The notes: generated by a model from the letters alone, not told the origin. Positions 14,779 through 51,904 are shown, numbered from the stretch's first letter. The stretch is DNA of 64,000 nt from Candidatus Cloacimonadota bacterium (GCA_029564175.1 JAKQQL010000474.1:14120-78119), one strand, 5' to 3'. Numbers and translations are program-made.

Positions 14779-17700
14779 ATGAAGCTAAATAAACAAGGAT
14801 ATCCATTTTATGATAAGGCTGAGCAAGATCGTGCTCAAAAAGGATATCAAGATGTTCTTTTTAATCCCGGCAGAAGTCTTCAACAAAGGGAATTAACAGA
14901 ACTTGGGTCTTATCAATATGAAAGATTGAAGAGTTTTGTTCGTGAACAATTTGGTGGTAATCAAATTCTTAGTGGTGCTACTCTTTCAAATCTTAATTCT
15001 CAAACGAAACAGATTACCTTTAGTGGTGCCAAAATTCTTTATGATGCTGATTTTTATACTGTTGATTCAACAACTCTTTCTTATGTCGGGTCTGGTGAAG
15101 AAGTTTTTTCTTTGGAATTGAAAGAACAGATTATTACCGAAATTGAAGATGAAAGTTTGAATGATCCAACAGAAGGGTATGACAATTATAATCAACCAGG
15201 CGCTTTTAGAATTAAAAGATGGGTTGAATATGTAAAGAATACAACAGATACAAATGCTCTAAAAGTTTTGGTCATGAATAATGGAGTTATTACATTTCAA
15301 AGGAATGAGGCAACTCCTTCTAAAGAAACAAAGGTTCAAAATGAATCAGACATTATGGCTTTAATAGAACAAAGAACCTATGAAGAATCTGGCAATTATA
15401 TTGCTTCAGGGTGTCGTTTGTTTAATAAACCTTGTCTAGACAATGAAAAAATTGGATTCTTTTTAGAGAGTGGCACAGTTTATATTGAAGGTCGCCGTAT
15501 TGATGTATTGCCACAAGACTTGTTTATTAAAAAGTCATCATTGGTTGATAATGTCATTGGTGAAACACATATGACAAAAGCCATTTCTGATCCAATTTAT
15601 ACTTTAAGAGAATCTCCGGCTATCAAAATCAATACATTGTATTTGCCTATTTTAGCCACTGGTTCTATTACAAGAGGTTCTTCAAATCTTGACCCAATTG
15701 GTTTTAATTTAAACATTGTAGATATTAAAAAGGTTTATGTAAATGTTGGTAGTCCATTTGAAAAAAATGTTCATTATAAGCAAAATGGTAATTTTATTGA
15801 ATGGTTAATAGCCCCACCAGAAGCACCTGCTGTTGGTTCAACATATACAGTAGAATATGTTTACAATAAAATCAATGGTGTAGAAAATGTTGATTATGAA
15901 TTATTCTTGGGATTGCCAGTTAATGATAAAACATTAGCAACTACATTGCCTGCCAATGGCCAAATTGCAATTCCAATGGATGATGAAGTTGGCAATTTAA
16001 TTGTTAAATCTGTTAAGGTTAATGGAACCAAATTAAATGATTATCAGTATATGATTAATCAGAATAAATTAACCATTCCTTATCTTACAAATAATCAAAT
16101 TATTCGAAAATCTTTTCAGAAGAGTTCAAATGCTTCAGAAGTATTTCCAATTGATGCGACGATTAACAGAATTCTATATTATTCGTCATCTAATTTAAAT
16201 CCTTATCTTGAAGGATTGCAGTATGTTCTCAATGGTCAGAATATTACCTTTTTAGATTCTGGAATAATGCCAAGTAAAGATTCATATTTAGTTGAATATC
16301 AATTGAATGCCCCAATCAATGCAACTTCCGGTGATTCGGTTGAAATTATTTATGCTTATGAATCAAAAAGTCAATCTCAAGACTGGCAATCTCAAGTAGA
16401 ATCTGTTTTAAAAATTCTGAATGTTAATCTTGCTGAAGGATATAATATTTTTGTTAATTATTCTTATGTTCCTACACAACATTATTATATTACGGTAGAT
16501 AAAGATGGAAAAATTAATTCTAAATATCAACCTTCAAAGATTAAAGATTTAATGATTTCTTCAACAGAATTGTTAATTGCAGATGTTTATACAAAACATT
16601 ATAGTATGATACCTTTTGTTCAACTCCAGAAAATTTTAAATGTTTCTATGGGTGAATTGAGAACAATGAAGACTGAAATTGAAAATCTAAAATATGATAT
16701 TCAATTGTCAGATTTGGAAAAATTGGTTGAATTAAATGAACCAGCTTCAAGTTTAAAAGGTGTATATACTGATGGATTCATAACAGATTCAAAAATAGAT
16801 GATGGTTATTTGTCAATTAAATTGGGAGCTTCAAATTATCAAAAAAGAACTCTTGTGCCAAATATTCCTAAGAAATTATTGAATTTGAATTTTACAATGA
16901 CTGATACTATTTTGTCTCCAGACTGGAATGATCCAAAAACAACAGCCGGTAGATTTGACAAAATGGTTTTAATTTCTAAAGATTATACAGATGTTCTTTG
17001 GAAGAGTCAGCCATTAGCCAGTAATTACAGGTCATTAGCAGAAGGGGCCGCTTGGGAAGCACAACCAAAAGTCAAAATCACTCCAGATAGTGATATGTTT
17101 ATGGATAAAGAATCTTTGGAAAAACAATCAATTGTTTCCAAAATTGATTATACTTTGGCCAATGCCGGTGCGGCACCAGCTTTTAATAATAGTATTGTTC
17201 CTGTAGTTAATAATGGAACAGTTGGGGCAGGTTCTCAATCAACATCCACTATTGCCGGAGATTATCAAACAACCGTCGTGAAATGGTATGAAAAGAAAAC
17301 TTCTGAAACTTCACAGAATCTAGGTGATTTTGTCAAGTCAATTGAAGCTGAAATGAATTTGAGACAAATTGAAATCAAACTATCGGCTGAAAATTTTCCA
17401 GACAATCAAGATTTAATTGAACTATTTTTTGATGGTATTAGATGTGAGTTAAGGCAAGACCCGGATAATTTAGTTGGCACACCAAGTCTATTATTGGATG
17501 GTGCTTTTAAAGCTAATTCGGATGGCAAATTTAATGCTGTTTTTACTATTCCATCTGGTATTAGATATGGTAATAGAAAAGTTGAATTGATGGCACCAGG
17601 TAGTAAAACAGAAACAACTTTTTGGGGATTAGGATTAAAACAACAAGTCCAAGAATTGACATATAATCAATCTATTACAAATTGGGAATTACAACAAAAA

Positions 17701-19962
17701 ACAGTTAGCACTAAAATTTGTTCTTGTAGAACGAATTGTAGTTGTAATGGTAGAACACCATGTAGTTGCAATGGGTATGTTCCACCTTCTTGTAGTTGTG
17801 ATGCTAGAACTTCTTGCAGTTGTAATACCAGAACACCAATAATTGCCTGTGAATGTAAAACACAATTGGCTTGTGGTTGCCATTCTAGAAATGTTTGTGA
17901 ATGTAATTCAAGAACACATTGTAGTTGTAATTCTCGAACGCCTTGTAGTTGTGATGTTAGAACACCTTGTAGTTGTAATACTCGATATCCATGTATGTGT
18001 CAGGGTCGTGACAGTGGCAACAGAGACGGCGGCGGATGTGGTGGAACAACACCAATTGGGCAAACGTTTGTCATCAATATGGAAGATGAAAGAACCTTTA
18101 GCCCAATTCAAAAGAAATTGATTGAATTGCCATCTAAATCAAATATTTTTGTATCGGCTGTTGATCTTTGCTTCCATCGTCCAGGCAATATTGATCCTAT
18201 GTTTGTTATGTTCTCACCTCTTGGTGATCAAGGACTACCATTGTATTTTGATATGGCAAGTCCAAATTATGAAGAATATTCATATTTGGATATTTTAAAT
18301 TCAAATGCTTATTCTGATATTGCTGATAAATGGTTCCATAAAAAATTCTCCACACCAATGTCATTAGTTGGCAATTCTAGATATGCTATGATTTTAGGTT
18401 CTCACGATATTGAATGTAAACATTGGGTTGCTAAACTTGGAGAGAAAAACGTTAAGACAAATGAAATAATTACCACTGAACCAGACAGAGGCGTTTTCAT
18501 TGCAGCACCGAATGGTGATACATGGCAAACTGACATTCAGAGTGATTTGACACATCAAATTTATATCGCTGATTTTTCTACTGACCCAAAAATTGAATTA
18601 TTTGATTTTAATAATTCTACCATGTATCGTAGTTATCTTTATTACCCAACGGTTGTTTTTAATGATGTTCTTAATTCTACTTGCCAAAAAGCTAATTTTA
18701 TATTGGCAAGAATTCAAGGAGAAGAATCAACCGATGGATTGGCTTATTTGAGATATGAATATTCAACAAATGCTGGCCAAACTTGGGTTGAATTTATCCC
18801 CGAAAGTCTCATTGAATTTGATGAGGCTGTTTCAAATGTTCAATTTAGGGTAATTTTTGAATCAACTAATAAATATGGTTCACCAATGTTGAAAGATTCA
18901 AAATTGTATCTATCTTTTGGTAGATATGAAAAAGATGGTTTTTATGTTTCAAGAAGTTCTAAGATTGGTGAATATAAATATGTCAATACCTATCTTGATA
19001 AGTTTAATGATCCTTCTCTTTCAACCATTGATATTTATTATTCACCTGACAATGGATATTCTTGGAGATCAATGCCACAAATGAAATCTGAAATGTTGTG
19101 GGTAGATTATCAAAAGGAAGCTTATCAAGTATATTGTGAAACGAAAAATAAATTAATTGATCCTGAAATTTTAAGTCATAATATTTCAGGTGTTGGATCA
19201 TTAACAGGTAATAAATATTATTCAATTGTTTATCATACTTTAAATGACGGAAGAACATTGGCCTCTAATAAATATCAAGTTTCTGGATTGTCAAATAATA
19301 AAGTTGATTTGTCCATCAAATTTGATCCAAATAGTTCATACTTCAAAATCTACAGAAGTAATACTATTGATGGGGATTATCATTTGATTTATAATTCAGG
19401 AGTCATGACAACATTAACAAATAATGTCCTTTCTACTGATAATGTTTTACCTGTTAATTCCACGGTAGAATTTCCTGAAAGTGGATTCTTAATCATAAAT
19501 AATGAATTTATTTCTTATAGTGGCAAAACATTAAATTCATTTACTGGATGTGTCAGAGGTCAGACCGATTTAAATCAATTTGTGACAGTTGCATCAAACC
19601 ATAATCTTGGAAATAGTGTAATTCTTATGAGTTATCCTTCAACAGACTTGCCACTTTGTTCAGATGTTCAAGGTGCAAGTGGTAAAATACCGGATGACTT
19701 CGAAGTTCTTGGAACATTGCCAAATATTTATTGCCAAATGGTATTTACTGATGAAGGATTGAATGATTTAACTCCTGTATTAGTTGCCGAAACTGTTGTT
19801 CCAGAAGATGATGAAGCTGTTTTTGATTCTTCATTCTTGAAGATGATGATTCACATGAAAATTGATGGTGCCACGGAAAATGAAATTCAATCCAATTTGG
19901 ACAATTCTAAATCATGGCCACAATGTGGTAGATTGATGGTAAGTGCAAAAATGATTGATTAA
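14779..19962 (+). CDS. Giant tail fibre/adhesin paralogue 1 with internal Cys-rich octad repeat array
   Basis: 1727 aa. N-terminus FNPGRSLQQRELTEL, then NDPTEGYDNYNQPGAFRIK, GSTYTVEYVY and LKGVYTDGF blocks, all shared with 25534-28866 and 20047/20644 (recalls DUF4815-type phage proteins, from memory). C-terminal FPESGFLIINNEFISYSG motif. Followed by a terminator. Confidence 0.8.
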   Translation: MKLNKQGYPFYDKAEQDRAQKGYQDVLFNPGRSLQQRELTELGSYQYERLKSFVREQFGGNQILSGATLSNLNSQTKQITFSGAKILYDADFYTVDSTTLSYVGSGEEVFSLELKEQIITEIEDESLNDPTEGYDNYNQPGAFRIKRWVEYVKNTTDTNALKVLVMNNGVITFQRNEATPSKETKVQNESDIMALIEQRTYEESGNYIASGCRLFNKPCLDNEKIGFFLESGTVYIEGRRIDVLPQDLFIKKSSLVDNVIGETHMTKAISDPIYTLRESPAIKINTLYLPILATGSITRGSSNLDPIGFNLNIVDIKKVYVNVGSPFEKNVHYKQNGNFIEWLIAPPEAPAVGSTYTVEYVYNKINGVENVDYELFLGLPVNDKTLATTLPANGQIAIPMDDEVGNLIVKSVKVNGTKLNDYQYMINQNKLTIPYLTNNQIIRKSFQKSSNASEVFPIDATINRILYYSSSNLNPYLEGLQYVLNGQNITFLDSGIMPSKDSYLVEYQLNAPINATSGDSVEIIYAYESKSQSQDWQSQVESVLKILNVNLAEGYNIFVNYSYVPTQHYYITVDKDGKINSKYQPSKIKDLMISSTELLIADVYTKHYSMIPFVQLQKILNVSMGELRTMKTEIENLKYDIQLSDLEKLVELNEPASSLKGVYTDGFITDSKIDDGYLSIKLGASNYQKRTLVPNIPKKLLNLNFTMTDTILSPDWNDPKTTAGRFDKMVLISKDYTDVLWKSQPLASNYRSLAEGAAWEAQPKVKITPDSDMFMDKESLEKQSIVSKIDYTLANAGAAPAFNNSIVPVVNNGTVGAGSQSTSTIAGDYQTTVVKWYEKKTSETSQNLGDFVKSIEAEMNLRQIEIKLSAENFPDNQDLIELFFDGIRCELRQDPDNLVGTPSLLLDGAFKANSDGKFNAVFTIPSGIRYGNRKVELMAPGSKTETTFWGLGLKQQVQELTYNQSITNWELQQKTVSTKICSCRTNCSCNGRTPCSCNGYVPPSCSCDARTSCSCNTRTPIIACECKTQLACGCHSRNVCECNSRTHCSCNSRTPCSCDVRTPCSCNTRYPCMCQGRDSGNRDGGGCGGTTPIGQTFVINMEDERTFSPIQKKLIELPSKSNIFVSAVDLCFHRPGNIDPMFVMFSPLGDQGLPLYFDMASPNYEEYSYLDILNSNAYSDIADKWFHKKFSTPMSLVGNSRYAMILGSHDIECKHWVAKLGEKNVKTNEIITTEPDRGVFIAAPNGDTWQTDIQSDLTHQIYIADFSTDPKIELFDFNNSTMYRSYLYYPTVVFNDVLNSTCQKANFILARIQGEESTDGLAYLRYEYSTNAGQTWVEFIPESLIEFDEAVSNVQFRVIFESTNKYGSPMLKDSKLYLSFGRYEKDGFYVSRSSKIGEYKYVNTYLDKFNDPSLSTIDIYYSPDNGYSWRSMPQMKSEMLWVDYQKEAYQVYCETKNKLIDPEILSHNISGVGSLTGNKYYSIVYHTLNDGRTLASNKYQVSGLSNNKVDLSIKFDPNSSYFKIYRSNTIDGDYHLIYNSGVMTTLTNNVLSTDNVLPVNSTVEFPESGFLIINNEFISYSGKTLNSFTGCVRGQTDLNQFVTVASNHNLGNSVILMSYPSTDLPLCSDVQGASGKIPDDFEVLGTLPNIYCQMVFTDEGLNDLTPVLVAETVVPEDDEAVFDSSFLKMMIHMKIDGATENEIQSNLDNSKSWPQCGRLMVSAKMID
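17719..18039 (+). repeat. In-frame array of about 12 octad repeats C-x-C-[N/D]-x-R-T-x (24-nt periodicity) inside the fibre gene
   Basis: CSCRTN CSCNGRTP CSCNGYVPPS CSCDARTS CSCNTRTPIIA CECKTQLA CGCHSRNV CECNSRTH CSCNSRTP CSCDVRTP CSCNTRYP CMCQGRDS, then GGGCGG. Read directly from the translation (aa 981-1087). Confidence 0.9.
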
Positions 19963-19986
19963 GATTTTTTGTTTGGTAAAATTAAT

Positions 19987-20025
19987 GGAGAGGCTGATAA
20001 AGTTGGCCTCTCCATTTTCTCTATT
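19987..20025 (+). terminator. Rho-independent terminator
   Basis: GGAGAGGC (19987-19994) / GCCTCTCC (20006-20013) stem, followed by a T-rich tract. Confidence 0.75.
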
Positions 20026-20046
20026 TTGTTTTATGAGGTGAATTGA

Positions 20047-20337
20047 ATGAAAACGAATTTAAATCAATCGCCCTATTTTGCTGATCCAGATAAAGAATAT
20101 TTTGAAAAACATTATCGAAAGATTATTGCCCTTCCTGCTAGAGTATTACAGTCGAGAGAAATAACAAATCTTTCCTTTTTTCCATTGATGGCAATAAAAG
20201 AATTCTCTGATATATATCATTACAATACAAAAATTATTAAGGGAATTTCAAATCAAGTGGACAAAAAGATTAATGAAAATTCTTTGATCCTGAATACAGT
20301 AAACACGACGGTCGAATTGTTTGAGGGTGATTTATAG
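20047..20337 (+). CDS. Stand-alone N-terminal fragment of the giant-fibre family
   Basis: 96 aa. SPYFADPDKEYFEKHYRKIIALPARVLQSREITNL aligns with the first ~50 aa of 14779 and 25534. SD AGGTGA. Ends TAG. Confidence 0.65.
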   Translation: MKTNLNQSPYFADPDKEYFEKHYRKIIALPARVLQSREITNLSFFPLMAIKEFSDIYHYNTKIIKGISNQVDKKINENSLILNTVNTTVELFEGDL

Positions 20338-20651
20338 TGATTAATGATCCGATCATTAGAATGATTCCAAATGATTATTATGATAAAATTAAGAAGAAGT
20401 TAAAAGGTCAGAAACGTTGCCATGGTTTAATTGTTCCAAATGATTTTGGAAGAACTCTAACATCTTTTGATGTAGAATTGTTGCAATCTATTCCAATTGA
20501 TCTTTTAAAAGAAGTAGGCGAATCTCTTAATATGAAACCATTAATGGTTGTTGATGGGTTATTTAATAATTCATTTTCAATCAAAAAAGATTTGGTTTTT
20601 TTAAATGATTTGTCAAATTGCCAAGTAGTGGAGGAAAACTTTCATGGCTAA
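20337..20651 (+). CDS. Hypothetical protein inserted between fibre fragments
   Basis: 104 aa. GTG start 7 nt after GAGGGTGA. Different frame from the two flanking ORFs, which share a frame. Confidence 0.45.
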   Translation: MINDPIIRMIPNDYYDKIKKKLKGQKRCHGLIVPNDFGRTLTSFDVELLQSIPIDLLKEVGESLNMKPLMVVDGLFNNSFSIKKDLVFLNDLSNCQVVEENFHG

Positions 20652-23600
20652 GTATTTGAAATTAGCAAGTTTAACAGGAAATCCATTGTATGTGTATGAT
20701 TCAAGATATCAATCAGATACTTCACATTATGAAGCTGATTTGATTAAACTATCTGGTATTGACAAATATGTTTTTATGGATGATGATGAAACAAAAGTAT
20801 TTTCTGTTTTTGCAAATTGGATTCCGACAACTTGCAGTATCAGTTTGAAATTGCAATTTAACCCTCTTTTGTTAAGTAAAGATTTTAGTTTGTTTGGATA
20901 TGGAAATGATTTAAATCTTAGTAATTCATGGGGTCTTTTTGTAAAAGAAAATAAATTTCAATTATTGATTTCCAATGGATTGAATTATTTAACAGTAGTT
21001 TTCCCATCTTTTACGTTTGACAATAATTTTGACTTTGCAAAGAAATATAATTTGACATTCATTCAGAATGCTAAAACAGCTACAATTTATCTTGACAATA
21101 AAAAGATTGATTCTATTGAATTGCCTTTTTCATTGGTATCATCACAGATCAATTCAAAAATCTTTATTGGTTCTCTTGGTGATATTACAAGATATGATGC
21201 ATTTATGGGAAAAATTTTTGAGGTTGGTATCTGGGATAGAGAGCTATTTAATGAAGAAATTCAAGATTTGACCAATTTTAGAATTCAAGATAATCCAGCT
21301 CTTCAAACAAATGTAAAGAAGATTAAGATTTATCAAGGTAAGATTTATTATGAAGGCATTTTTCATAATGTGCCAGAATCATCTGTTTATATTCAATGTC
21401 AAGGACTTGAAACAGTTGATCTTTGCATCAATGAAAAAATAATCACTGAAAATGATGATCCTGATTTATTGGATTCATCAGTTGATTATTTCAATTTCAA
21501 TCGACCCGGCGCTCATAGGTTGTCTTATGAATATCAAGTAGTCAGAAATGCCAATCCTCAAAATTATGACATTGTCATTACACTGTTAAAATTCCTTGAT
21601 GGCGTTAAAATCTTTGATTTACTTGAGGAACAAAATGGCAAAACGGAATCAAATGTAGTTGTCCCAACTCCTGAAAGTTTGCCAGACAACCTTGCTGAAA
21701 TTGTCATGGATATTACTGGCAATTTTATTGTTGAAGGATTGGATGTTTCTATGGTTCAGGGAGTGGATAAATATACCCTTACATTAAATCCCGGTAAATA
21801 CTATCTGAATGGCAAGAAATATCAACTATCTTCACAAAGAACATTTGATATCCCAAAACAATTCCAGACACAGAAAGTTTATGGGGAACCAGTCAAATAT
21901 ATTGAAAATGATACTTATCGTATAAATAAACAACCTTTGACAAAATCATCAACACCTGAAATTGTTATTCCTGTTGTTGAAAGAAATGTTATGATAACAA
22001 AGGGTATTCCGGGTGGACAGGACAGTATTCAAGGATTTGGAAATATTATCAAACTCTTGAAAGTTCAAGATACCACAACATATCTCGAAGAGGGAAATAC
22101 TTCAATCACCCCTTCTTGCCAATTGACAGGAAATAAAATTGACTGGTCATTACCTGGCAATGAACCATCAGAAGGATCAACATATACGGCTAATTTTATT
22201 TACAATAAGCTTTTAATTGAAGGAAAAGATTATTATAGATGTTTAGGAAATAAGGTGCAAAAAGAAATTGTTTCTTATAATGCCAGTAATCTCTATCCTG
22301 TTTATTATGAACCCGAATTCATTGTTAGAATTAAGAATGGTTCAATGATTTTTGACAATGATGATGTTGTGATTACTGGAAAAACAATTTCTTTCAAGAA
22401 TCATTCTTCATTAAATAATACACAACCAATTGAAATTATTTACTCCTTTAGTTCACATTCATTCTTTAAGAATAAGTGGTCTATTTATTTTGATCCAACT
22501 TCTAATGAATTCAATGCAAACTATTGGGGATACATTAATTATGACTATGATCTTGCTGACATTTATACATTGGCTATTTTTGGAAATAATTCAATTGGAT
22601 TGGTAAAAGGATTGTCTGGAAATTTGGATACGGTTTCAAAGGCCAATATTGACAAAAATTCATTGCCAATAACTGATATTTTGATTGATTCTTCTTCTTT
22701 CTCGGAAAACAATTCAATTAAAAAATATGAATGGAATAGAACACCTATATCACAAGTTGTTGAAAATTTAAGAAGAACGGAAAGACTTGAGGAACGAGTT
22801 ATTTTGAGTTCCTTAGAAACTGAAGCTTCATCTTATGCTAGTGCTGATATTCTTAAAGGAACATTTACTGATAGTTTGGCCGATTATAATTATTCAAATA
22901 TTTATCATCCTGAATTTACTGGCCATATTGATATGATTGATTCTCTTGGCAATCTTTGTTCTGGACTAGAAAAAAAAGTCTTTCAAACTGTTGGAAATGC
23001 AAATGCAAGATTTAAAGAATTTGGATACATGCCAATTGTTTCTCAACAGAATAATGAAACAATCCAGATTTCCGATGTATTGAAATTTGGTTCCAATACG
23101 GAATCAACATTTAAATCTATCAGTGTTTACAATGATTATGATTATATCAGTGAATCAAATGATCAATGGCCACAAAAATTTGTTGATAACATTCTTTTCA
23201 ATCGTAGACCAATTATTCCATCAACGATAAATACACAATCAACAAATGGAATGGACATTCAAAATCAGTCTTATTTGAAATCAATCACTGAAAAATTAAA
23301 TAAGATGGTTCAATGGTCTTCTTTTAAAATGACCAATAAAGAATTAATTCTCGTTGGTATTAATCACAATTCATCGGAGTCCAATCTTTCTGTTTTGGTT
23401 GGCAATAAAGAAGTTCAATTGGAACAGGTTTCATTGTTGTTTGACAATATTAAACAACAATTTTATGTTCCAAATGTTCAAACAACAACGTCAACAAATA
23501 AAACTGTTTATATTTATGAACCAATCCAAAGTGGCTCCGGTTGGATAGTTCAAGACAATAAAATAACCTGTAATCTCAATGGGGAATTTGTTGTTAAGGT

Positions 23601-25515
23601 AAAACTGGAAGGATTAAATATTTCAACTGGATTGGTTGAATTAAAGGTTGTTGATGCATCACAAAATAAATCCACAATCACTTTGAATTGTAGTGGCATC
23701 AATAATAAGATTAGAAACATTTTAGTCAACAATAAAAGAATGGATGATAGTATTTTTGGTATTTCACCATTCATGAATCAGTCCAATCCTTTTTATGTTC
23801 AACCTTTTAAAGTAAATGAATCCAGAATTCTGAACAATGTTTCGATTCTTTCAACATTTCTTGATTTTTCGAGGCCAATTGTTATTAGTATTCAAGAATT
23901 TGAAAATGGTAAGCCTGGTAAAATTCTTACTCAAAAAATCATTTCAAAGGAATCTGATGTTTCAATTACCAATGTCATTAATAGTTTAACACCGATACAA
24001 AAGATGAATGTCATTTTTAATCAACCTGTAATTTTAAGACCTGATCAAACATATTGTATTGGTATTAATTCTAGTTCACCTTCGTTGAATATTGGTATCA
24101 TCCAAAAAGGTCAACCATCAATTTTTAATAATTTGATGATTACTAATCTGACACAAAATTATCCTCTTCGTCAATTGTTAGATGAGGATTCTTATAAGGT
24201 TCTTGAGAATATGGAATTGTCATTTAATCTTGGAGTAAGTTCTGTGAGTGCTCCTGTTGTTAATGGATTTTATCAATCAGAAATTGTTTTTAAGGAAATC
24301 GAATTTCAGCCATCAGATAGAGGATATCATTTCTCTGTATTGATTGATGATTTGAATTATTTTGACAACCAAACAAAAGTTGATTATTATTACACCGTTG
24401 AAACTGAAAGCACTCCTGCTGGTGTGTATGGAACAATTTGGGAACAATTTTTGCCGTATACTGTAATTCAGAATAATTCAAAAATCATTAAACTTCAGAT
24501 TAAAGCTGTATTAAAAACAAAGAACATTAATTATTCTCCAAGTGTTCACTTGTATCCATCTGTGGTAATTTATAAATATAAATCATCTTCTAACTATATT
24601 TCAAAAGCTTTTGAATTGTTTGAAAATAATGCTGACAACGTTAAAATTTACTTTGATGCTTATTTGCCAACTGATAACCTTTTAAAGATTTACGTGTCTC
24701 CAAATGATTCAAGTGATTGGAGAGAAATTGATTATTCAAATGAAATTTCAAAATCAAATGGAACATTTGCCAAGTTTACATATCTGACAAAATTGTCATT
24801 GTTGAAACCAAACATTTTAGAAATTTCAAAAGATGGTTCGGGTAGTTTAACGGGTAAGTATTATTATCGAGTGGCTTTGTTAGATAGGGATGGATTTGAA
24901 ATTGGTTCTGAATTAGTAGAAATTAATGGATGTTCGAATAATTCAGTGAAGTTAAAAATACAACCAGATAAAAACATGTATGGTTTTAAAGTTTATAGGG
25001 GAATTACTTCTATTCAATTGAATCAGATTTATGATTCAACATCACATGCACTGTTAATACAAAATCTGGATAATCAATCAACAACAGTATTCTTAGATAC
25101 AAATAAACTCATTGATTTCCCAAATTCTGGTAAAATTAGAATTGACAATGAAATTATGACATTTACAAAATCTGGAAATGCTTTAACAGTTGTTCGTGGG
25201 TCTGATTCAACCAGAATTGAAAAACATGATGCCAATGGTGTCAGAGAAGCTTATTTGTGGGATCACGGAACAATTATTCAGGAATCATTAAATGGTCAAT
25301 GTCCATCATTAATACAAGATGGAAATATATTCTATTTCAATTTTGTTGATAATGGTTCAAAATATTCTACTAATACTACAAAGGTATTTGTTCCTTCATC
25401 TACAAACCAAACTTCTATTTATCCCAAGTATATTTTGGTGAAGATTCAAATGATTAATAATTTGTTAAAAGATACTCCTTTAATCAAGAACTTGATTGTC
25501 AATGCCTTGGTTTAA
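20644..25515 (+). CDS. Giant tail fibre/adhesin paralogue 2 with N-terminal LamG-like domain
   Basis: 1623 aa. GKIFEVGIWDRELFNEEIQDL is a LamG/concanavalin-like signature. Then ENDDPDLLDSSVDYFNFNRPGAHRL, GSTYTANFIYNK and LETEASSYASADILKGTFTDS blocks shared with the paralogues. C-terminal FPNSGKIRIDNEIMTFTKSG. Confidence 0.8.
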   Translation: MAKYLKLASLTGNPLYVYDSRYQSDTSHYEADLIKLSGIDKYVFMDDDETKVFSVFANWIPTTCSISLKLQFNPLLLSKDFSLFGYGNDLNLSNSWGLFVKENKFQLLISNGLNYLTVVFPSFTFDNNFDFAKKYNLTFIQNAKTATIYLDNKKIDSIELPFSLVSSQINSKIFIGSLGDITRYDAFMGKIFEVGIWDRELFNEEIQDLTNFRIQDNPALQTNVKKIKIYQGKIYYEGIFHNVPESSVYIQCQGLETVDLCINEKIITENDDPDLLDSSVDYFNFNRPGAHRLSYEYQVVRNANPQNYDIVITLLKFLDGVKIFDLLEEQNGKTESNVVVPTPESLPDNLAEIVMDITGNFIVEGLDVSMVQGVDKYTLTLNPGKYYLNGKKYQLSSQRTFDIPKQFQTQKVYGEPVKYIENDTYRINKQPLTKSSTPEIVIPVVERNVMITKGIPGGQDSIQGFGNIIKLLKVQDTTTYLEEGNTSITPSCQLTGNKIDWSLPGNEPSEGSTYTANFIYNKLLIEGKDYYRCLGNKVQKEIVSYNASNLYPVYYEPEFIVRIKNGSMIFDNDDVVITGKTISFKNHSSLNNTQPIEIIYSFSSHSFFKNKWSIYFDPTSNEFNANYWGYINYDYDLADIYTLAIFGNNSIGLVKGLSGNLDTVSKANIDKNSLPITDILIDSSSFSENNSIKKYEWNRTPISQVVENLRRTERLEERVILSSLETEASSYASADILKGTFTDSLADYNYSNIYHPEFTGHIDMIDSLGNLCSGLEKKVFQTVGNANARFKEFGYMPIVSQQNNETIQISDVLKFGSNTESTFKSISVYNDYDYISESNDQWPQKFVDNILFNRRPIIPSTINTQSTNGMDIQNQSYLKSITEKLNKMVQWSSFKMTNKELILVGINHNSSESNLSVLVGNKEVQLEQVSLLFDNIKQQFYVPNVQTTTSTNKTVYIYEPIQSGSGWIVQDNKITCNLNGEFVVKVKLEGLNISTGLVELKVVDASQNKSTITLNCSGINNKIRNILVNNKRMDDSIFGISPFMNQSNPFYVQPFKVNESRILNNVSILSTFLDFSRPIVISIQEFENGKPGKILTQKIISKESDVSITNVINSLTPIQKMNVIFNQPVILRPDQTYCIGINSSSPSLNIGIIQKGQPSIFNNLMITNLTQNYPLRQLLDEDSYKVLENMELSFNLGVSSVSAPVVNGFYQSEIVFKEIEFQPSDRGYHFSVLIDDLNYFDNQTKVDYYYTVETESTPAGVYGTIWEQFLPYTVIQNNSKIIKLQIKAVLKTKNINYSPSVHLYPSVVIYKYKSSSNYISKAFELFENNADNVKIYFDAYLPTDNLLKIYVSPNDSSDWREIDYSNEISKSNGTFAKFTYLTKLSLLKPNILEISKDGSGSLTGKYYYRVALLDRDGFEIGSELVEINGCSNNSVKLKIQPDKNMYGFKVYRGITSIQLNQIYDSTSHALLIQNLDNQSTTVFLDTNKLIDFPNSGKIRIDNEIMTFTKSGNALTVVRGSDSTRIEKHDANGVREAYLWDHGTIIQESLNGQCPSLIQDGNIFYFNFVDNGSKYSTNTTKVFVPSSTNQTSIYPKYILVKIQMINNLLKDTPLIKNLIVNALV

Positions 25516-25533
25516 TAAAGAGAGGTATATTAA

Positions 25534-28500
25534 ATGAAATCAATTATGGATGCTACTAGGAAGCCGTATTATGATTCATCGGCTGAAGAAATAAGTAAAG
25601 GATATGTCAAATTATTGTCAGTTCCCGGAAGAACATTACAAAATAGAGAATTGAATGTAATGACCGGATTGACAATGGAACATATCAAAAATATTGGGGA
25701 TAACATTTTAACAAATGGAACGGTTGTGTCTGGATGCTCTTTCTTTCTCCGAGAAGATATAGGGAGAGCATCCCTTTCCAATGGTAAAATTTATGTTGAT
25801 GGATATATCATTGATATTCCGAATGCTGAATGGCCCATTGAAGATGTTATTGAAGGTGTCAAATTTATTTGTGTTGAAATCCATCAAATGGCAATTACCG
25901 AAGAAGATGACCCATTATTAAAAGACCCTGCTGAAAAGTATGAAAACTATGGTGAACCAGGCGCTCATAGATTGAAAATTATTTCTGTTCCATTAATCTT
26001 TACGGAAGAGGAATTGAAAATTGCTCAGTCTGGTTCCAGAAGAATCATTGATATTTTGAAATTGATTAATGGGCGTCTTATTGGCCCAACTAAACCAAAA
26101 CCTGCTTTTGGTAAAATGTATGATTATCTTGCTCATAGAACATTTGATGAAGTTGGCAATTTTATTGTCAAGGGAATGAAAGTTTCCTGTTCTTCTGATG
26201 AATCAACGATTGAAAGATACAAGATCAATATTACTCCCGGCAGAGCTTATGTAATGGGATATGAATACAGTTATGATAATCAAAATATCAAAAATAAATC
26301 TGCCATTGATAGTAAAAATTCAACAGTTGATGAAGTGAGAACATTTACTTCTTCGGTTAAAGAATATAAACTGTTTAAACCAAATGTCAAGCTTATTGAA
26401 AAAATTCAATGTCAAGTTCGAAATAATAACTTCCAAGTTATTCGATCAGTTTCAGGCTCCATGTCTGATATTTTGAAACTTGATTCTGTAAAAGAAATTC
26501 ATCAGATTTTTCAAGGGAATAATGTTTATGTAAATGGAAGAGATTGGACAAGGGATGGTAATTCAATTGTGTGGTTATCATCAAATAGACCTGCTTCTGG
26601 TTCAACATTCTTTGTTGATATTTCCTATATAAGAAGATATTATGAAGGTGTTGATTATTCTCTTTCTGTTGATGATGACAATTATACCATCATAATGTTT
26701 CAAGTTGATCCAGAAGAAAATTCGGATTTTACCATTACTTATACTTGGTATCTTTCACGTTATGATTTAGTTTATATTGACATTTCTGGTGAGTTAAAAG
26801 TAATTTCTGGTATTGCTGGTGAAGAGTGGGAAATAACAGTTCCACAAATTCCAATTAATACTCTTCCATTGGCTTATATCTATGTCAAACCAGGCAAACA
26901 ACCATCAAGTTATTCAGTTCAAATGTTTAATATTTATAGAGTTTCGGTTGTTGATCAAAGAGCCAATATTGATAGACTTAACAATTTGGAATTCAATTTA
27001 GCTATGACAGCACTTGAAACAGAAGCCCAAAAGATACATGAACAGAAAGATGAATCACAATCAAGTGGTAATTTAAAAGGTATTTATGTTGATTCATTTG
27101 CTGATTTTTCAAGATCAGACTATTATCATCCTGATTATAGAGCAGGCATTAATATCTTTGAACAAGAATTAAGATTACCACTGGTTTCTGAAATTCTTGG
27201 TGTTAAGGAAATTGAAAACAATCAAATCATTGATACATCCTCTACTACATTCAATAATGATTATATGATTTCTCTTCCTTATTCTGAAATGGCAATTGAC
27301 TGGCAAAGATATGCAACAGATTCAATTGATTTGAATCCTTATAATTTGATTCCATTGAAACCAATCTTGGAAGTTAAACCGCCATATTCAGTAAAGATTG
27401 AAGAACGTATTGCTAGAGATACAGAAGTTATTTTACCATTAAAGACATTTATGTCAAGTTCAACAATTCGAAATTCTACATCAAGAACCGTTAGCACATC
27501 AACAACGGTTGGAAGTGGAAATACTGTTATTAGTAGTTGGAGTTCTGTTTCAACATCATCAACAACTTCAACATCAACTTCAAGATCAGTTAAAAATGAA
27601 ACATTTAAAAATATTTCAATGAAATTTCTTGAGGATTTAGATACTGGATTGATGCCACAAGAAACATTGAGAATCAAGGGAAGGAATTTTATTCCATTTT
27701 CAGAAGTGCGATTGAATTTTAATGATGTTTTAATTACTTCTTTCAATCTCTTGCCAAATATGGGCACTGTCGGAAGTTTGCCATATCAGATTAAAACAAA
27801 TAGTCGTGGGGAATTCGAATTAGATTTCAAAACGCCTGTTGCAACATCAACTGGAACAAAGTTGATTATGGTGGCTGAATATAAACAAATCAACAATGTA
27901 TGGCAATCAACTGACACTGTTGCCATTACTTCTTATACTGGACTTTCTTTTATTCGTGAAATGGAAAGAATTACAGAAGTTCAGAACATTCAAAGAATCT
28001 ACGATACTATGTATATCAACACTTTGAATACTACAACTGTTAGTGTTGTTAATCAATTAGGATGGACATGGCGAGGCGATCCATTGGCACAATCTTTCTG
28101 GTTTGATGAAGATACATTCATTTCAAGTTTTGATTTGTTCTTTGAATCAAAGCCTGAAAATCCAGAGATTAAAGAAATTTGGTATATGATTAGGGAAATA
28201 TCTGGTGGGGAACCAAATGGCCCAATTCTTTATAGATCAACTTTGCGATGGGAAGATATTAAAACTTCGCCAGATGCAACAATTCCAACAAACTTTAAAT
28301 TCAATTTCCCAATATATTGTCAACCTTCAAAAGAATACGCTTTGATTGTTGGCTGTGATAGGCCGGGATATAAGATTTATTTTGCTAAGATGAGTAATAA
28401 AGATATCATGACAAATACTTTATTACAGTCTCAAACACATAAGGGAACAATGTTTACATCTTCAAATAATGTTTCATGGACGACACATCAAGACCAAGAC

Positions 28501-28866
28501 TTAACATTTACACTCTATCGTGCTAAATTCAATCCGATTGGAACATTGCTATTTAAACCATTGTCATTATCTCTTGGGAAATTTTCACTCATGAATATTT
28601 CATTTGATTCTATCGTTTTGGAAGAGACAGAAATCAAAACAACATACCAAATTAATAATAAAGAATGGTATATTTGTCCATTGTCCGAATCAATTTCAAT
28701 AGAATCGAATTATGATGACAGACAAGATATCATTTTTAAATTCGAATTGTCAACTTCTGATGATAGAAAGACACCATTTATCAATTTAAATACTCTTTCA
28801 ATGTTGTTTGCTAAATATGGATTGACTGGGTCTTATATTATGAGAAGCATGGAAATTCCAAATTAA
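25534..28866 (+). CDS. Giant tail fibre/adhesin paralogue 3
   Basis: 1110 aa. N-terminus SVPGRTLQNRELNVM, then DDPLLKDPAEKYENYGEPGAHRLK, LETEAQK...LKGIYVDSFADFS. Ser/Thr-rich tract around aa 640-690. Confidence 0.8.
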   Translation: MKSIMDATRKPYYDSSAEEISKGYVKLLSVPGRTLQNRELNVMTGLTMEHIKNIGDNILTNGTVVSGCSFFLREDIGRASLSNGKIYVDGYIIDIPNAEWPIEDVIEGVKFICVEIHQMAITEEDDPLLKDPAEKYENYGEPGAHRLKIISVPLIFTEEELKIAQSGSRRIIDILKLINGRLIGPTKPKPAFGKMYDYLAHRTFDEVGNFIVKGMKVSCSSDESTIERYKINITPGRAYVMGYEYSYDNQNIKNKSAIDSKNSTVDEVRTFTSSVKEYKLFKPNVKLIEKIQCQVRNNNFQVIRSVSGSMSDILKLDSVKEIHQIFQGNNVYVNGRDWTRDGNSIVWLSSNRPASGSTFFVDISYIRRYYEGVDYSLSVDDDNYTIIMFQVDPEENSDFTITYTWYLSRYDLVYIDISGELKVISGIAGEEWEITVPQIPINTLPLAYIYVKPGKQPSSYSVQMFNIYRVSVVDQRANIDRLNNLEFNLAMTALETEAQKIHEQKDESQSSGNLKGIYVDSFADFSRSDYYHPDYRAGINIFEQELRLPLVSEILGVKEIENNQIIDTSSTTFNNDYMISLPYSEMAIDWQRYATDSIDLNPYNLIPLKPILEVKPPYSVKIEERIARDTEVILPLKTFMSSSTIRNSTSRTVSTSTTVGSGNTVISSWSSVSTSSTTSTSTSRSVKNETFKNISMKFLEDLDTGLMPQETLRIKGRNFIPFSEVRLNFNDVLITSFNLLPNMGTVGSLPYQIKTNSRGEFELDFKTPVATSTGTKLIMVAEYKQINNVWQSTDTVAITSYTGLSFIREMERITEVQNIQRIYDTMYINTLNTTTVSVVNQLGWTWRGDPLAQSFWFDEDTFISSFDLFFESKPENPEIKEIWYMIREISGGEPNGPILYRSTLRWEDIKTSPDATIPTNFKFNFPIYCQPSKEYALIVGCDRPGYKIYFAKMSNKDIMTNTLLQSQTHKGTMFTSSNNVSWTTHQDQDLTFTLYRAKFNPIGTLLFKPLSLSLGKFSLMNISFDSIVLEETEIKTTYQINNKEWYICPLSESISIESNYDDRQDIIFKFELSTSDDRKTPFINLNTLSMLFAKYGLTGSYIMRSMEIPN

Positions 28867-40475: not shown

Positions 40476-42617
40476 ATGTTATGGATTAGTCTATTTGTTG
40501 TTATTAGTATTGTGTTGTTTATCTTTCTAATTATTTTAAATGTGGGGAATATACAAAAGACCAATCATAAAATAGATGATTTAGAACAACTTGAAAAGAA
40601 AAAACTTGAAATGAAAGAATTAGAAGACCATCTTAAAAAATTAGCTGAAATCAATATATCTTACTCTAAAGAATTGGATACATTTACTGAATTTCATGAA
40701 ACCGTTTTAAAAAAATCATCTGATTTAGAGTTGCAATTCAAAACTCTTTTTAATAATTCTCCAATTGGAATATGCCGAGTGTCTATAAGTGGAAAATATA
40801 TTTACGCAAATTCTGCTTTAGCTAGAATGTTAGGCTATTTTGATGCCACTGAATTGACAAGTCTTGTTCAGAATACATCAGAACAAATATTTATGTTTCC
40901 AGATGAACGAAAAAGAGTTATTAAAAAACTTTCCATTAAACCTTATGAACCAGTTTTAATTGAACATGAATTAAAAAAGAAAAATGGAACTTCCATATTT
41001 ACAAGATGCAAGTATATGGGAGTATTAAATGAAAGAGAACAATTATCTTATATGGATGTTATAATAGAAGATATTTCTGATTTAAAGAAAAAAGAACAAG
41101 AGTTATATGATCAAAATGACATGATCATGGAATTATTAAAAGAACAACAAGAAATGAATGATCATTTAGACAAACAGGTTAAAGAGAGAACAAAAGAATT
41201 AGAGAAAAAGAGATATGAATTAGAAAAGATGAATCATGAATTATTAAAAATGAAAAATCTTTTTGAGAACATGTATAAGAAAGCTCCAATTGGATTATTT
41301 AGATCAAGTATTTCAACTGGCAAATTTCTTTCTTGCAATGATGCAACTGCTCATATATTTGATGTAAGAAATGCTGACGAATTTCTTAAAATAGTTAATG
41401 CTTTAGATATTTGGGGAAATAAAAAAAGAAGAGATGAATTAATAGAACATTTTAAAAATCTTCCTTCAATGACTACCTATAATCATATTGATTATTGCCA
41501 AACACCAATATCTAAAAAAGAAAGATATGTATCTGTTTCAGAACTTGCCAATTTTGATGATGATTATTTTGAAGGAGCATTTATTGATGTCACGGAAGAG
41601 TATTTAGCTAAAAAGAAACTGGAAGAAATGAATAAAAATTTAGCTAAAATTGTTAATGAAAGAACACACAATCTAATTGAACAATATGCTTATACTCAAC
41701 AATTAATATCAGAATTGGAAGAATCAAATAATCTTCTCAAAATAAAAACAAATAATCTTGAATTAAATCAATTAAAATTAAAATCTATCATAAAAACAAT
41801 TCCTGACAGTATTATTGTTTGCAAAATAAATGGTAAAATAACCGAATCATATAATATTCCAATGAATTTATTTCATGGGGATCCAATCGATTCAATTTTA
41901 TCTTTATTCAATTTAGATAATTCTTCTTATTTAATAAAATGTTTTGAAAAAATTATTCAAGAACATCATCCTGAAATTCAAAGTGGTATGATAAAAGAAT
42001 TATTTAATAATCAAATCAGTTGGTTTGAATATAATATTTTTAAAATGAATTCCGATCATGTTATTTTAGTTTTTAGAGATATTACTTCGAGAATGCAGAC
42101 AAAAACATTATTAGATTCAATATTACAGTCAACACAGATTCTTTTAACTAAGAAGCCTTTTGAATGTGCTTTGTATGAATCTCTTGAATGGTTTGGTAAA
42201 CTCAACAATGTTCAACGGGTATTTGTTTATAAAAATGAGGAAGATTCCTATATGAGTTCATTGGTATCAGAATATCATGAAGACCATCTTTTTGATTTAA
42301 ACAAAGATCAAAATAGACAATTGGATTATCTAAAAATGTCTAATGACCTTTCAATTTATAATCAATTAAAACAGGGGAAATGTGTTGAATTTATTATGAA
42401 AAATGAAGACCATGAAAAAATTCCAATAGTTGAGAGATTGAAACATAAAGGAGTTAAATCTATTTTATGTGTTCCTATTATTTTTCAATTGGATTTCTTA
42501 GGATATTTAGGAATTAGTGATTATGTATCAGATAGGATTTGGTCAGAGACTGAAAAACAAACATTATTGACATTTGCAACTAACATTGGTTTGATGATGG
42601 AAAAGGAGAATTTTTGA
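40476..42617 (+). CDS. Membrane-anchored PAS-PAS-PAS-GAF sensor-like protein without output domain
   Basis: 713 aa. N-terminal TM LWISLFVVISIVLFIFLIILNV. PAS-like starts FNNSPIGICRVSISGKYIYANSALARMLGY, YKKAPIGLFRSSISTGKFLSCNDATAHIF and IIKTIPDSIIVCKINGKITE, separated by coiled coils. GAF-like C-terminus (VQRVFVYKNEE...VKSILCVPIIFQLDFLGYLGISD...WSETEKQTLLTFATNIG). No H-box kinase, GGDEF, EAL or HTH seen. Confidence 0.65.
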   Translation: MLWISLFVVISIVLFIFLIILNVGNIQKTNHKIDDLEQLEKKKLEMKELEDHLKKLAEINISYSKELDTFTEFHETVLKKSSDLELQFKTLFNNSPIGICRVSISGKYIYANSALARMLGYFDATELTSLVQNTSEQIFMFPDERKRVIKKLSIKPYEPVLIEHELKKKNGTSIFTRCKYMGVLNEREQLSYMDVIIEDISDLKKKEQELYDQNDMIMELLKEQQEMNDHLDKQVKERTKELEKKRYELEKMNHELLKMKNLFENMYKKAPIGLFRSSISTGKFLSCNDATAHIFDVRNADEFLKIVNALDIWGNKKRRDELIEHFKNLPSMTTYNHIDYCQTPISKKERYVSVSELANFDDDYFEGAFIDVTEEYLAKKKLEEMNKNLAKIVNERTHNLIEQYAYTQQLISELEESNNLLKIKTNNLELNQLKLKSIIKTIPDSIIVCKINGKITESYNIPMNLFHGDPIDSILSLFNLDNSSYLIKCFEKIIQEHHPEIQSGMIKELFNNQISWFEYNIFKMNSDHVILVFRDITSRMQTKTLLDSILQSTQILLTKKPFECALYESLEWFGKLNNVQRVFVYKNEEDSYMSSLVSEYHEDHLFDLNKDQNRQLDYLKMSNDLSIYNQLKQGKCVEFIMKNEDHEKIPIVERLKHKGVKSILCVPIIFQLDFLGYLGISDYVSDRIWSETEKQTLLTFATNIGLMMEKENF

Positions 42618-43672
42618 TGAAATGTTGTAAACATCTAACAATTAGACAAAAATTATATTTTAGTTTGGTATTTACTTTTTTCATTTCATTCTTGTTAATC
42701 TTTGTTATTGGAAATCTTTATATTGAATTATCCTTTAAAGAATCTGATGAAAAATTACTTCAAAAAGAAATGAATTTGGCATCTCTTATCATTGGAAATT
42801 TTCAAGATAAAATTGATAGTTTTGTATATGATTATGCGCATTGGGAAGAAACATATAAATATACTTCTAATGATAATAAAGAATTTGTTAATAGGGAATT
42901 GTTAAATAATTTTACTATTTCATCAAATTATATTGACATATTACAAATCATTTCTGTGAATGGAGATATTCTTTTTCAATATGATTACACAATATTGAAA
43001 ACTGGAATACCAAAAGAATTCTTAACAGTTAATAAACAATTCATTAATAATAAAAACGATAGTTCTATTTCTGGATATTATTTTGTGGAATCAAGAAATG
43101 AAATGTATTATATTGTTTCATATCCAATTGTTTGCCCAAAACATAAAGAATATCCAACTAAAGCTAGTTTGGTTGGTATTGGTAAATTGAATTGGAATAA
43201 AATATTTCCAAGAGGCTTTTCACTTTTTGATTCAACAATTGATTTTCAATTTAAACCTCCATTTGATTTGAAACAAAACATGAAAATTCAAAATACACAA
43301 GGTCAATTATTTTCAGAATATATTTTAAAAGATGTTCAGGATAGACCCGTTGGTAAAATTCAATTAACAAAATCATTTGAAATCAAAAATACTTTAGATT
43401 CATTTTTTACCTTAATAATGTTTATTTTCTTAATAGTTTTTATTTTTTTTCTAACACTTCTTTTTTACTTTTTCATTTCCATTTTTAGGAAAATTAATCA
43501 GGTTTGTCTCATCATATATGAAATTAATAATATGGGATCATTAGATGAAATTGAAAATCTAAATATTCAAGAAAAACAATGTCAGTTCGACAATAAAAAT
43601 GAATTTGAATTTTTAGATTGCCAACTTTATAAAATGATTAATAAATATTTCAATAAGGGAAGACATATCTAA
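42617..43672 (+). CDS. Two-TM protein with CHASE4-like extracytoplasmic domain
   Basis: ATG overlaps the upstream TGA (TGATGA). TM1 LYFSLVFTFFISFLLIFVIGNLYI and TM2 FFTLIMFIFLIVFIFFLTLLFYFFISIF. DYAHWEETYKYTSNDNKEFVNRELL resembles the CHASE4 D-[YW]-[AS]-x-W-D-[DE]-T-Y motif (from memory). Short cytoplasmic tail only. Confidence 0.45.
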   Translation: MKCCKHLTIRQKLYFSLVFTFFISFLLIFVIGNLYIELSFKESDEKLLQKEMNLASLIIGNFQDKIDSFVYDYAHWEETYKYTSNDNKEFVNRELLNNFTISSNYIDILQIISVNGDILFQYDYTILKTGIPKEFLTVNKQFINNKNDSSISGYYFVESRNEMYYIVSYPIVCPKHKEYPTKASLVGIGKLNWNKIFPRGFSLFDSTIDFQFKPPFDLKQNMKIQNTQGQLFSEYILKDVQDRPVGKIQLTKSFEIKNTLDSFFTLIMFIFLIVFIFFLTLLFYFFISIFRKINQVCLIIYEINNMGSLDEIENLNIQEKQCQFDNKNEFEFLDCQLYKMINKYFNKGRHI

Positions 43673-43673
43673 A

Positions 43674-51497: not shown

Positions 51498-51502
51498 TAA
51501 AA

Positions 51503-51904
51503 ATGGAAGAGGAAAAGAAACCTTGGTGGCGTGCATTTGGTGAAAAAGTAATTGGGGTTGGATTAGCAATTGGAGCCATATTTCTTTATTTCTTCATGAG
51601 TAAAAAATTTGGCAATGCTAATGATGACAAGATCAAAGAACTTGAAGATCAAATTGAAAACAGAAATAAAAAGATCAAAGAAATAGAAGAGAATGTCTGT
51701 CATTTAGAAGAAGAAGATAAACTTGATGAAAAGAAACAGTTTGAATTAGAACTCAAAAGAGAGAAATTAAATGATTTGTTATCCGATAACAAAAAAGAAA
51801 TTGAGGAATTGAAAAAGAAACCACCAGTTAAAAAAGTTGGTAGTGTAAAAGAAGCCATTAATTTTGTTGAAGATAGATATAAAAATAAGAAAGTAGGTAA
51901 ATAA
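51503..51904 (+). CDS. N-terminal-TM coiled-coil protein (i-spanin-like or lysis accessory)
   Basis: TM VIGVGLAIGAIFLYFFM followed by a charged coiled coil. ATG 51503 lies 10 nt after AAGGAA (the track starts at 51494). Confidence 0.35.
   Translation: MEEEKKPWWRAFGEKVIGVGLAIGAIFLYFFMSKKFGNANDDKIKELEDQIENRNKKIKEIEENVCHLEEEDKLDEKKQFELELKREKLNDLLSDNKKEIEELKKKPPVKKVGSVKEAINFVEDRYKNKKVGK

Follow-up and report, generated by a model that had tools for sequence, protein, structure and literature searches.

A cysteine-repeat array inserted in a phage baseplate protein as a candidate substrate of a distantly encoded pair of radical SAM enzymes

In the stretch of 64,000 nucleotides analysed here, referred to as the window (Candidatus Cloacimonadota bacterium, GCA_029564175.1, JAKQQL010000474.1:14120-78119), a 1727-residue phage tail protein contains a run of short cysteine repeats, the fibre array, and repeats of the same CxCxxRT type are found in a stand-alone protein encoded directly behind two radical S-adenosylmethionine (radical SAM) enzymes, rSAM1 and rSAM2. 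The stand-alone protein is presumed to be the primary substrate of this enzyme pair, and the question raised by the locus is whether the array of the virion protein is also modified by it. The sequence comparisons described below make it somewhat probable that the rSAM1/rSAM2 pair takes the fibre array as a substrate, and the modification would then probably consist of thioether cross-links. The features on which the comparison is based are the following.

14779-19962, plus strand: DUF4815 baseplate protein of 1727 residues, homologue of the phage 812 tripod and host of the array (Pfam, PDB and Herelleviridae matches)
17719-18039, plus strand: CxCxxRT array, residues 981-1087 of the 1727-residue protein, its end formed by a stretch rich in Gly and a last Cys
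20644-25515 and 25534-28866, plus strand: two DUF4815 paralogues without the array, used as internal controls (Pfam DUF4815)
46743-48251, plus strand: rSAM1, a 502-residue radical SAM/SPASM enzyme, CteB/PapB-like (NCBIfam, PDB entry of CteB, Cys positions)
48259-49167, plus strand: rSAM2, a radical SAM enzyme of 302 residues that lacks SPASM (Pfam Radical_SAM, 2.1e-12)
49179-50432, plus strand: stand-alone CxCxxRT-array protein of 417 residues with 48 Cys (family alignment A3; profile 1.9e-27)

The fibre array is found exactly at the coordinates given for it in a preliminary description of this DNA, which had also counted about 12 octads and seen a 24-nt period. The segment of residues 981-1087 contains 25 of the 36 cysteines of the host protein, arranged as 12 CxC units, being, in order, CSCRTN, CSCNGRTP, CSCNGYVPPS, CSCDARTS, CSCNTRTPIIA, CECKTQLA, CGCHSRNV, CECNSRTH, CSCNSRTP, CSCDVRTP, CSCNTRYP and CMCQGR... 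The spacing of the units is exactly 8 residues (24 nt) in 8 of the 11 intervals, the Cys-Cys autocorrelation peaks at lags of 2, 8 and 16, and three stretches with the 24-nt period and 80-84% matches, being 17726-17774, 17786-17834 and 17902-17979, are detected by Tandem Repeats Finder. The complete C.C..R[TS] pattern is fitted by half of the units (6/12), and Arg is present at position 6 in 9 of them. When the whole protein is shuffled, a mean of 0.004 such motifs is obtained (maximum 2), compared with the 6 observed, and when only the 107 residues of the Cys-rich segment are shuffled the mean is 0.13 (maximum 3) and six motifs are reached in 0/20,000 shuffles, which excludes chance or a Cys-rich composition as the source of the motif run. 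At the DNA level, the window contains three matches to the two-unit pattern, with 0 expected, and the C.C..R[TS] motif is confined, in the six reading frames of the window, to the fibre array (six times) and the stand-alone protein (12 times). The two DUF4815 paralogues, which had been reported to lack the array, contain no CxC at all, and the separation of about 29 kb from the radical SAM genes is measured as 28.7 kb between the array and rSAM1, which are on the same strand.

The fibre array can also be identified without recourse to the proteins of the window. A hidden Markov model was built from 18 members of other phages, leaving out the window proteins and the window's 51% relative, and matches only 2 of the 202 open frames of the window, being the stand-alone protein (1.9e-27) and residues 957-1079 of the fibre protein (4.3e-20). 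When 1.84e9 representative proteins are searched with the fibre array by phmmer, 17 matches are obtained, which are its own cluster, 14 family members of 170-540 residues and two spurious matches; the best stand-alone family members, P0010 and P0011, are matched at 2.5e-12. These comparisons show that the fibre array and the stand-alone repeat are one module. The proposed match between the two arrays of the window thus holds by motif and by profile; the pairwise similarity is modest (BLASTP E 3e-5), which implies that the stand-alone gene was not duplicated recently to give the fibre copy. Among the representative proteins searched with phmmer, an array embedded in a large virion protein is seen only in the lineage of the window, and the CxCxxRT repeat appears to behave as a portable module.

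The pattern of conservation in the fibre array points to the same residues as those defining the radical SAM-linked family. Orthologues of the fibre protein at 97% and 87% identity both retain the array, and no segment of the protein has diverged more from the 87% orthologue than the array, which is 71% identical, with insertions and deletions, versus 84-94% in the flanks. The number of units is 12 in the window protein and 13 in this orthologue, as judged by inspection of P0005. In spite of this divergence, 25 of 25 Cys, 10 of 10 Thr and 10 of 11 Arg residues of the array are unchanged, with the other residues changing freely. The Cys, Arg and Thr residues of the array are shown by this alignment to be selectively retained, and the family is defined by just these residues. 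The contigs that carry the fibre genes of the relatives are at most 41.6 kb long and end before the expected position of the rSAM genes. Two proteins found in a look-up on the co-occurrence of fibre and cassette variants, P0044 and P0005, come from different, apparently related samples.

The stand-alone protein belongs to a family that has no name. It has no match to any Pfam, NCBIfam or functional PHROG family and has few close relatives; its homologues P0001-P0003 are each encoded directly after an rSAM2 orthologue, and relatives were not found when IMG/VR was searched with this protein. A profile of 20 family members (alignment A3) matches 21 clusters among 5.8e9 proteins, all of them unnamed. 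The CxCxxRT-array proteins are an unnamed, almost entirely phage-borne family, with a unit consensus of C-x-C-[N/D/V]-x-R-T and a spacing of about 8-12 residues. The protein of the window has an N-terminal two-helix domain (SLKxL..KGG..LxxLKxLLNxM..R) and a C-terminal CxCN...[YF] end, and the family as a whole has four architectures, in which the array follows a helical N-terminal domain, follows a different N-terminal domain with the sequence DGVWK (loci L016, L028 and L025), is bare (L118, L119 and L122) or is embedded, as in the fibre. The two-helix domain is absent also from L118, L119, L122:13453-16873, L016 and L028. In the AlphaFold2 (AF2) model of the family member P0026, calculated with 20 sequences, the N-terminal helical hairpin is predicted with confidence (predicted local distance difference test score, pLDDT, of 80-90), whereas the unmodified arrays have no confident fold (pLDDT <50); the model of residues 860-1284 of the fibre protein, calculated with 3 sequences, has a pLDDT of 29 and is uninformative. 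In the 538-residue protein P0011, two arrays are separated by a beta-rich domain of about 150 residues that is not Cys-rich and has no Pfam or PHROG match, an arrangement that looks like stalk-knob-stalk. A large expansion of the family is seen in IMGVR_UViG_3300035505_000313, where L122:10211-19484 contains seven consecutive array genes, encoding proteins of 166-645 residues with 339 Cys, and an eighth is found at L123:17858-19309; these arrays are flanked by two GT2 glycosyltransferases and four rSAM genes.

For the association of the arrays with the enzymes, IMG/VR, JGI metagenomes and GTDB genomes were searched with a degenerate two-unit DNA pattern, followed by an in-frame check. Further array proteins were obtained in this way in L011, L016, L023, L025 and L028, together with a short fragment in L026. 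The matches in L012-L014 were rejected after in-frame translation, being out-of-frame genes of acidic proteins, as were variants in which Ser is encoded by AGY; the CCCDNRT tandem repeats of L032-L034, from Oscillatoriales genomes, also look out-of-frame and are not family members. An array gene is found beside orthologues of rSAM1, rSAM2 or both in L001, L003, L004, L016, L023, L035/36, L115-120, L118, L119, L122/123, L124, L125-127, L129/130 and L131. The tie between the array module and the rSAM pair holds in both directions. By tblastn, orthologues of rSAM1 (31-45% identity) and rSAM2 (36-73%) are present in every array locus with enough flank except L028, covering about 13 lineages, and conversely the IMG/VR and genome loci with an rSAM2 at least 36% identical or an rSAM1 about 41% identical all include an array gene; arrays are missing where the rSAMs are more remote (at most 33% identity). 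Matches to the family profile add four further contexts, all in the order rSAM-array-rSAM.

An array without radical SAM genes was sought, since such arrays would speak against the link, and none was found among loci with enough flank. The sole candidate was L011, where no rSAM gene occurs within 14.7 kb, and it was rejected when walking along the 75.5-kb contig (L122, L123) gave an rSAM1-like gene, an rSAM2-like gene and two further rSAM genes within a few kb (5 kb) of arrays. Among 185,579 representative bacterial genomes scanned with rSAM2, a single array-bearing locus was found, on a 5.7-kb contig binned to a Clostridia metagenome-assembled genome. Cassettes with 3-6 rSAM genes occur. In L023:962-8017 (minus strand), on a contig of 25% GC, six open reading frames with rSAM motifs, two of them rSAM1-like and one rSAM2-like, lie downstream of a 255-residue array gene, which implies a multi-step modification. 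By comparative genomics the link between arrays and enzymes is solid. The bare arrays that lie beside rSAM genes in L118, L119 and L122 imply that the N-terminal domain is no obligatory leader, and therefore the leaderless fibre copy is not disqualified as a substrate.

The two enzymes differ in their architecture. In rSAM1 the CX3CX2C motif is formed by C30, C34 and C37, and the SPASM region has the conserved cysteines C277, C295, C338, C343, C346 and C366. The best match is to the NCBIfam model of PapB (1.1e-45, model positions 6-325 of 330; 156.3 bits versus a cut-off of 340), followed by the SCIFF maturase (1.1e-31; 110.2 bits versus 425) and by the CXXX-repeat maturase and QhpD, both at about 1e-28 to 1e-29 (for QhpD, TIGR03906, 2.9e-28 and 98.7 bits versus 453). 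Among solved structures it matches CteB (PDB entry: 5wgg) at 1.1e-23, residues 11-340 being aligned with chain residues 89-405; since the alignment leaves out everything before residue 89 of CteB and rSAM1 has no more than about 10-20 residues ahead of it, the N-terminal RRE, the recognition element of such enzymes, is absent. All the top NCBIfam matches place rSAM1 in the peptide-maturase branch, and in no named family. Its C-terminal tail (residues 397-443, 47931-48071) is rich in Cys and His, NPNCLCDSRGDQNVCHKECNGECQGECGNEYCQDGCHDCHCGSEDQH, with one repeat-like unit, CLCDSRG, and may serve as a pseudo-substrate, bind metal or hold an additional cluster. In rSAM2 the CX3CX2C motif is formed by C16, C20 and C23, with only three further cysteines, and the match to CteB covers residues 97-296, the core, only. 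Its matches include HxsB (7.7e-15) and the anaerobic sulfatase maturase, anSME (7.7e-11; TIGR03942, 41.7 bits versus a cut-off of 349). Both enzymes also match the models of the CXXX-repeat (TIGR04115), CefB 'Cys-every-fifth' and CcpM systems weakly, all below the cut-offs.

The host protein had been called a tail fibre, and it is indeed a virion tail protein; more precisely it is a baseplate protein of the tripod type. It matches Pfam DUF4815 (PF16075) at 2.1e-67, and the only solved structure that it matches is a 1152-residue DUF4815 chain of the phage 812 baseplate (PDB entry: 9euf), at 5.7e-41 and in three stretches. The 'adsorption-associated tail proteins' of Herelleviridae are matched at about 24% identity, and the genes upstream of the array host are baseplate genes (wedge, gp25-like and Phage_base_V). 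In the alignment with the 9euf chain, fibre residues 860-966 correspond to chain residues 686-786 and fibre residues 1123-1275 to chain residues 804-952, so that about 157 fibre residues, including the array, stand where the chain of phage 812 has an 18-residue inter-domain linker. The array is therefore an insertion between two conserved distal domains. In phage 812, twelve trimers of the multi-domain tripod protein gp119, with glycan-binding distal domains, are located on the baseplate arms (PMC13433997). The PDB table names the 9euf chain only as 'DUF4815 domain-containing protein | ORF65', and it is from its length and annotation that this chain is probably gp119; by homology to the phage 812 tripod, the array host would be expected to be trimeric. 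The DUF4815 N-terminal region and the two distal domains are shared with the solved chain, and the baseplate neighbourhood (gp25-like, wedge, BW3TFN) also agrees with that of the tripod proteins of phage 812, A511 and phage K, whereas the identity of about 24%, the presence of three tandem paralogues in the window and the insertion in place of the linker set the window protein apart.

In the favoured reading, the rSAM pair would act late in infection, in an anaerobic host, and would recognise the repeat unit itself, being the CxC with the near-invariant Arg-Thr, without a leader peptide; such leader-independent recognition is supported by the bare arrays and by the absence of the RRE. One or two intramolecular cross-links would be formed per unit, in the stand-alone protein and the baseplate protein alike. 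These would most plausibly be thioethers from a Cys sulfur to a carbon, for example from Cys3 to Thr7. PapB acts on a C-X3-D spacing, and Cys3-x3-Thr7 has the same i/i+4 spacing, which, together with the thioether formers being the nearest relatives of rSAM1, makes the thioether the most plausible product. An unstructured Cys-rich linker would thereby be converted into a rigid stalk, resistant to reduction and to proteases, carrying the distal receptor-binding domains. Sample names suggest that the array contigs come from anaerobic habitats. The wider proposal, that phages of such habitats have a dedicated rSAM cassette with which the Cys-repeat stalks of their own tail appendages are cross-linked ('vulcanised'), the array being a portable, leader-independent tag fit for insertion into virion proteins of any kind, as has happened in the tripod-type protein of the window, is tentative and falls a little short of an even chance.

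In its working, the scheme is like the ranthipeptide/SCIFF and QhpD-QhpC systems. In the ranthipeptide/SCIFF systems (CteB-CteA for thermocellin, PapB-PapA for freyrasin), the gene of a radical SAM/SPASM maturase also lies beside that of a Cys-rich repeat substrate; however, rSAM1 has no RRE and scores far below the equivalog cut-offs, a second rSAM without SPASM is an obligatory partner, the substrates are proteins of 170-650 residues or a virion protein of 1727 residues rather than precursors of 40-60 residues, and the phage-borne genes are in tail modules, with a product that is presumably kept as a structural protein and not released as a peptide. The combination of an rSAM/SPASM maturase with a tandem Cys-repeat target is likewise shared with the CXXX-repeat (TIGR04115), CefB and CcpM systems of RiPPs (peptides made on ribosomes and modified after translation), which differ in the repeat unit, here CxCxxRT, in the protein-size substrates and in the virion context. 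A further precedent is QhpD, a SPASM rSAM that makes several Cys thioethers within QhpC, a structural subunit of a larger assembly. The modified polypeptide of the phage would also stay structural, and rSAM1 matches the QhpD model; QhpC, unlike the window proteins, is small, non-repetitive and cellular, and the QhpD-QhpC system has no tandem array, phage context or second rSAM. Short periodic motifs with two ligands are also known from the HxH repeats at the tip of the T4 long tail fibre (gp37) and the CxC of metallothionein, and a trimeric fibre can stack metal sites along its axis. The likeness of the fibre array to the HxH repeats is one of resemblance only, as it has Cys and not His, an invariant Arg-Thr after the CxC and an exclusive co-occurrence with rSAM genes.

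In literature searches, neither a CxCxxRT repeat nor phage rSAM enzymes that act on tail proteins were found to be described. The new aspect would be that the scheme of an rSAM/SPASM maturase with a Cys-repeat substrate is transposed to phage virion components on the scale of proteins. To our knowledge, the covalent reinforcement of virions is either autocatalytic, as in the isopeptide chainmail of HK97, or achieved by disulfides, and the radical SAM peptide maturases known so far nearly all make small natural products that are secreted. If the array is modified, phages would use RiPP-type radical chemistry for reduction-proof structural elements in their receptor-binding machinery. On the wider proposal, no radical cross-link installed by an enzyme in a virus particle would precede this one, and the chemistry would be extended to structural assemblies of megadalton size. 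With modification of the array, a function would also be assigned to an unnamed family of Cys-rich phage proteins and to its two rSAM partners, and a new leader-independent substrate tag would become available for protein engineering, in the form of site-specific thioether stapling of large proteins.

Several observations weigh against modification of the fibre array by the pair. The cassette is not adjacent to the array in the window, and the fibre array is more similar to the arrays of other phages than to the resident stand-alone protein. The N-terminal two-helix domain and the CxCN...[YF] end are absent from the fibre, where tripod domains flank the array, and the missing domain could be a leader that recognition requires. 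Position 4 of the unit is N or D in the fibre, but a number of family members have Val there, and it thus provides no universal acceptor. The arrays of L028 adjoin a different rSAM pair, and in L129/L130:1401-8242 the cassette is found among RNA-repair genes (CCA/polyA polymerase, metallophosphatase, T4 RNA ligase 1, PTH2) and not among tail genes. In tblastn searches with the stand-alone protein, rSAM2 and the family member P0027 there is no match in INPHARED, and so no cultured phage with the cassette. Runs of CxC are classic metal ligands, and the conservation of Cys, Arg and Thr could instead reflect a structural role or metal binding. Such a role is proposed by the alternative in which only the stand-alone protein is modified and the fibre array stays unmodified, as a structural copy of the repeat with free cysteines that bind metal or form disulfides between the chains. 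The missing two-helix domain and the distance from the enzymes fit this alternative, as does the occurrence of CxC clusters as typical ligands in metallothioneins, with T4 gp37 as a related case; in a host that is expected to be trimeric, the strict 8-residue register would suit a regular stacked trimer, and in the metal variant three chains could provide six thiolates per CxC layer along the trimer axis, comparable to the iron sites of the T4 HxH repeats. It is nevertheless unlikely, since Arg6 and Thr7 are conserved like Cys in the fibre orthologues and a pure metal site needs no such non-ligand residues, and since leaderless arrays adjoin rSAM genes elsewhere. In addition, all the true matches of the fibre array in the representative proteins belong to the rSAM-linked family, whose members with an examined context adjoin rSAM genes, and disulfides would be unreliable in anaerobic habitats, as the habitats are judged from sample names.

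As neither enzyme scores anywhere near the curated cut-off of a characterised family, it is possible, and slightly less likely than an unmodified fibre array, that the pair acts on both arrays by a chemistry other than thioether formation, such as the oxidation of Cys to formylglycine (anSME-like, guided by the Arg downstream), epimerisation, C-C cross-links or another reaction, with separate steps for each enzyme. This would be in agreement with the matches of rSAM2 to the sulfatase maturase and HxsB, with the conserved Arg after the target Cys, which recalls the C-x-P-x-R motif of sulfatases, and with the 3-6 rSAM genes of some cassettes, which imply several chemistries. The best matches of rSAM1, by a wide margin, are nevertheless thioether formers (PapB 1e-45, SCIFF 1e-31, CteB 1e-23), and the unit misfits C-x-[PA]-x-R: when tried as the formylglycine motif, (C/S)-x-(P/A)-x-R, it has Arg at +3/+5 of the unit Cys and no Pro or Ala at +2, and this motif was rejected. 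A connection of another kind, in which the arrays adjoin rSAM genes as Fe-S or metal donors, scaffolds or regulators, the true substrate is elsewhere and the fibre array is unrelated, appears improbable. The Cys/His-rich tail of rSAM1 itself and the nucleic-acid-repair neighbourhood of the L129/130 cassette could be explained in this way; the order rSAM-array-rSAM is, however, the classic arrangement of maturase and precursor, rSAM1 belongs, by its top matches, to the peptide-maturase branch, and the arrays are large and numerous, as in the seven consecutive genes of L122, unlike a cofactor chaperone. Nor does this connection offer a reason for a module that donates Fe-S clusters to be embedded in a baseplate protein and kept there under selection. 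Modification of both arrays by the rSAM pair, most plausibly with thioethers, is therefore preferred.

The genomic neighbourhood of the cassettes is mostly that of tail and lysis genes. In the window, the lysis genes follow the stand-alone protein.

50931-51904, plus strand: endolysin and spanin-like genes (PHROG endolysin 4.8e-12, Rz-like spanin 1.2e-4)

With these genes just downstream, the rSAM cassette belongs to the late region and is located where the tail module meets the genes for lysis. The same position between tail and lysis genes is seen in L004, where a glucosaminidase is present, L118 and L119, and in L016, L028 and L035 the array genes directly follow PHROG tail-fibre genes. In the PBSX-like tail module of L124:4681-7607 (GCA_036771835.1, DAIPGN010000002.1), the order rSAM-array-rSAM comes after Baseplate_J/Gp48 and is followed by an amidase and a holin. 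The cassette is here in the usual slot of the tail fibre, which suggests that the 238-residue array protein is a fibre component.

Other genes of the window are of interest in their own right. The three DUF4815 paralogues are in tandem at 14779-28866 (plus strand), with 1727, 1623 and 1110 residues, and several lectin-like proteins (Laminin_G_3, F5/8 type C) follow this trio, giving a receptor-binding apparatus of unusual complexity. The proteins of the window are found on a contig of 183.5 kb. A 656-residue protein with an N-terminal cytidylyltransferase-like domain is encoded at 52420-54390 (plus strand), immediately behind the lysis genes. Just upstream of the cassette, at 40476-45481 (plus strand), there are open reading frames with sensor domains that are unusual for a phage, being PAS and GAF (40476-42617), CHASE4 (42614-43672) and two PAS domains (44462-45481); these three proteins could sense the redox or O2 state, which is relevant to O2-sensitive rSAM enzymes.

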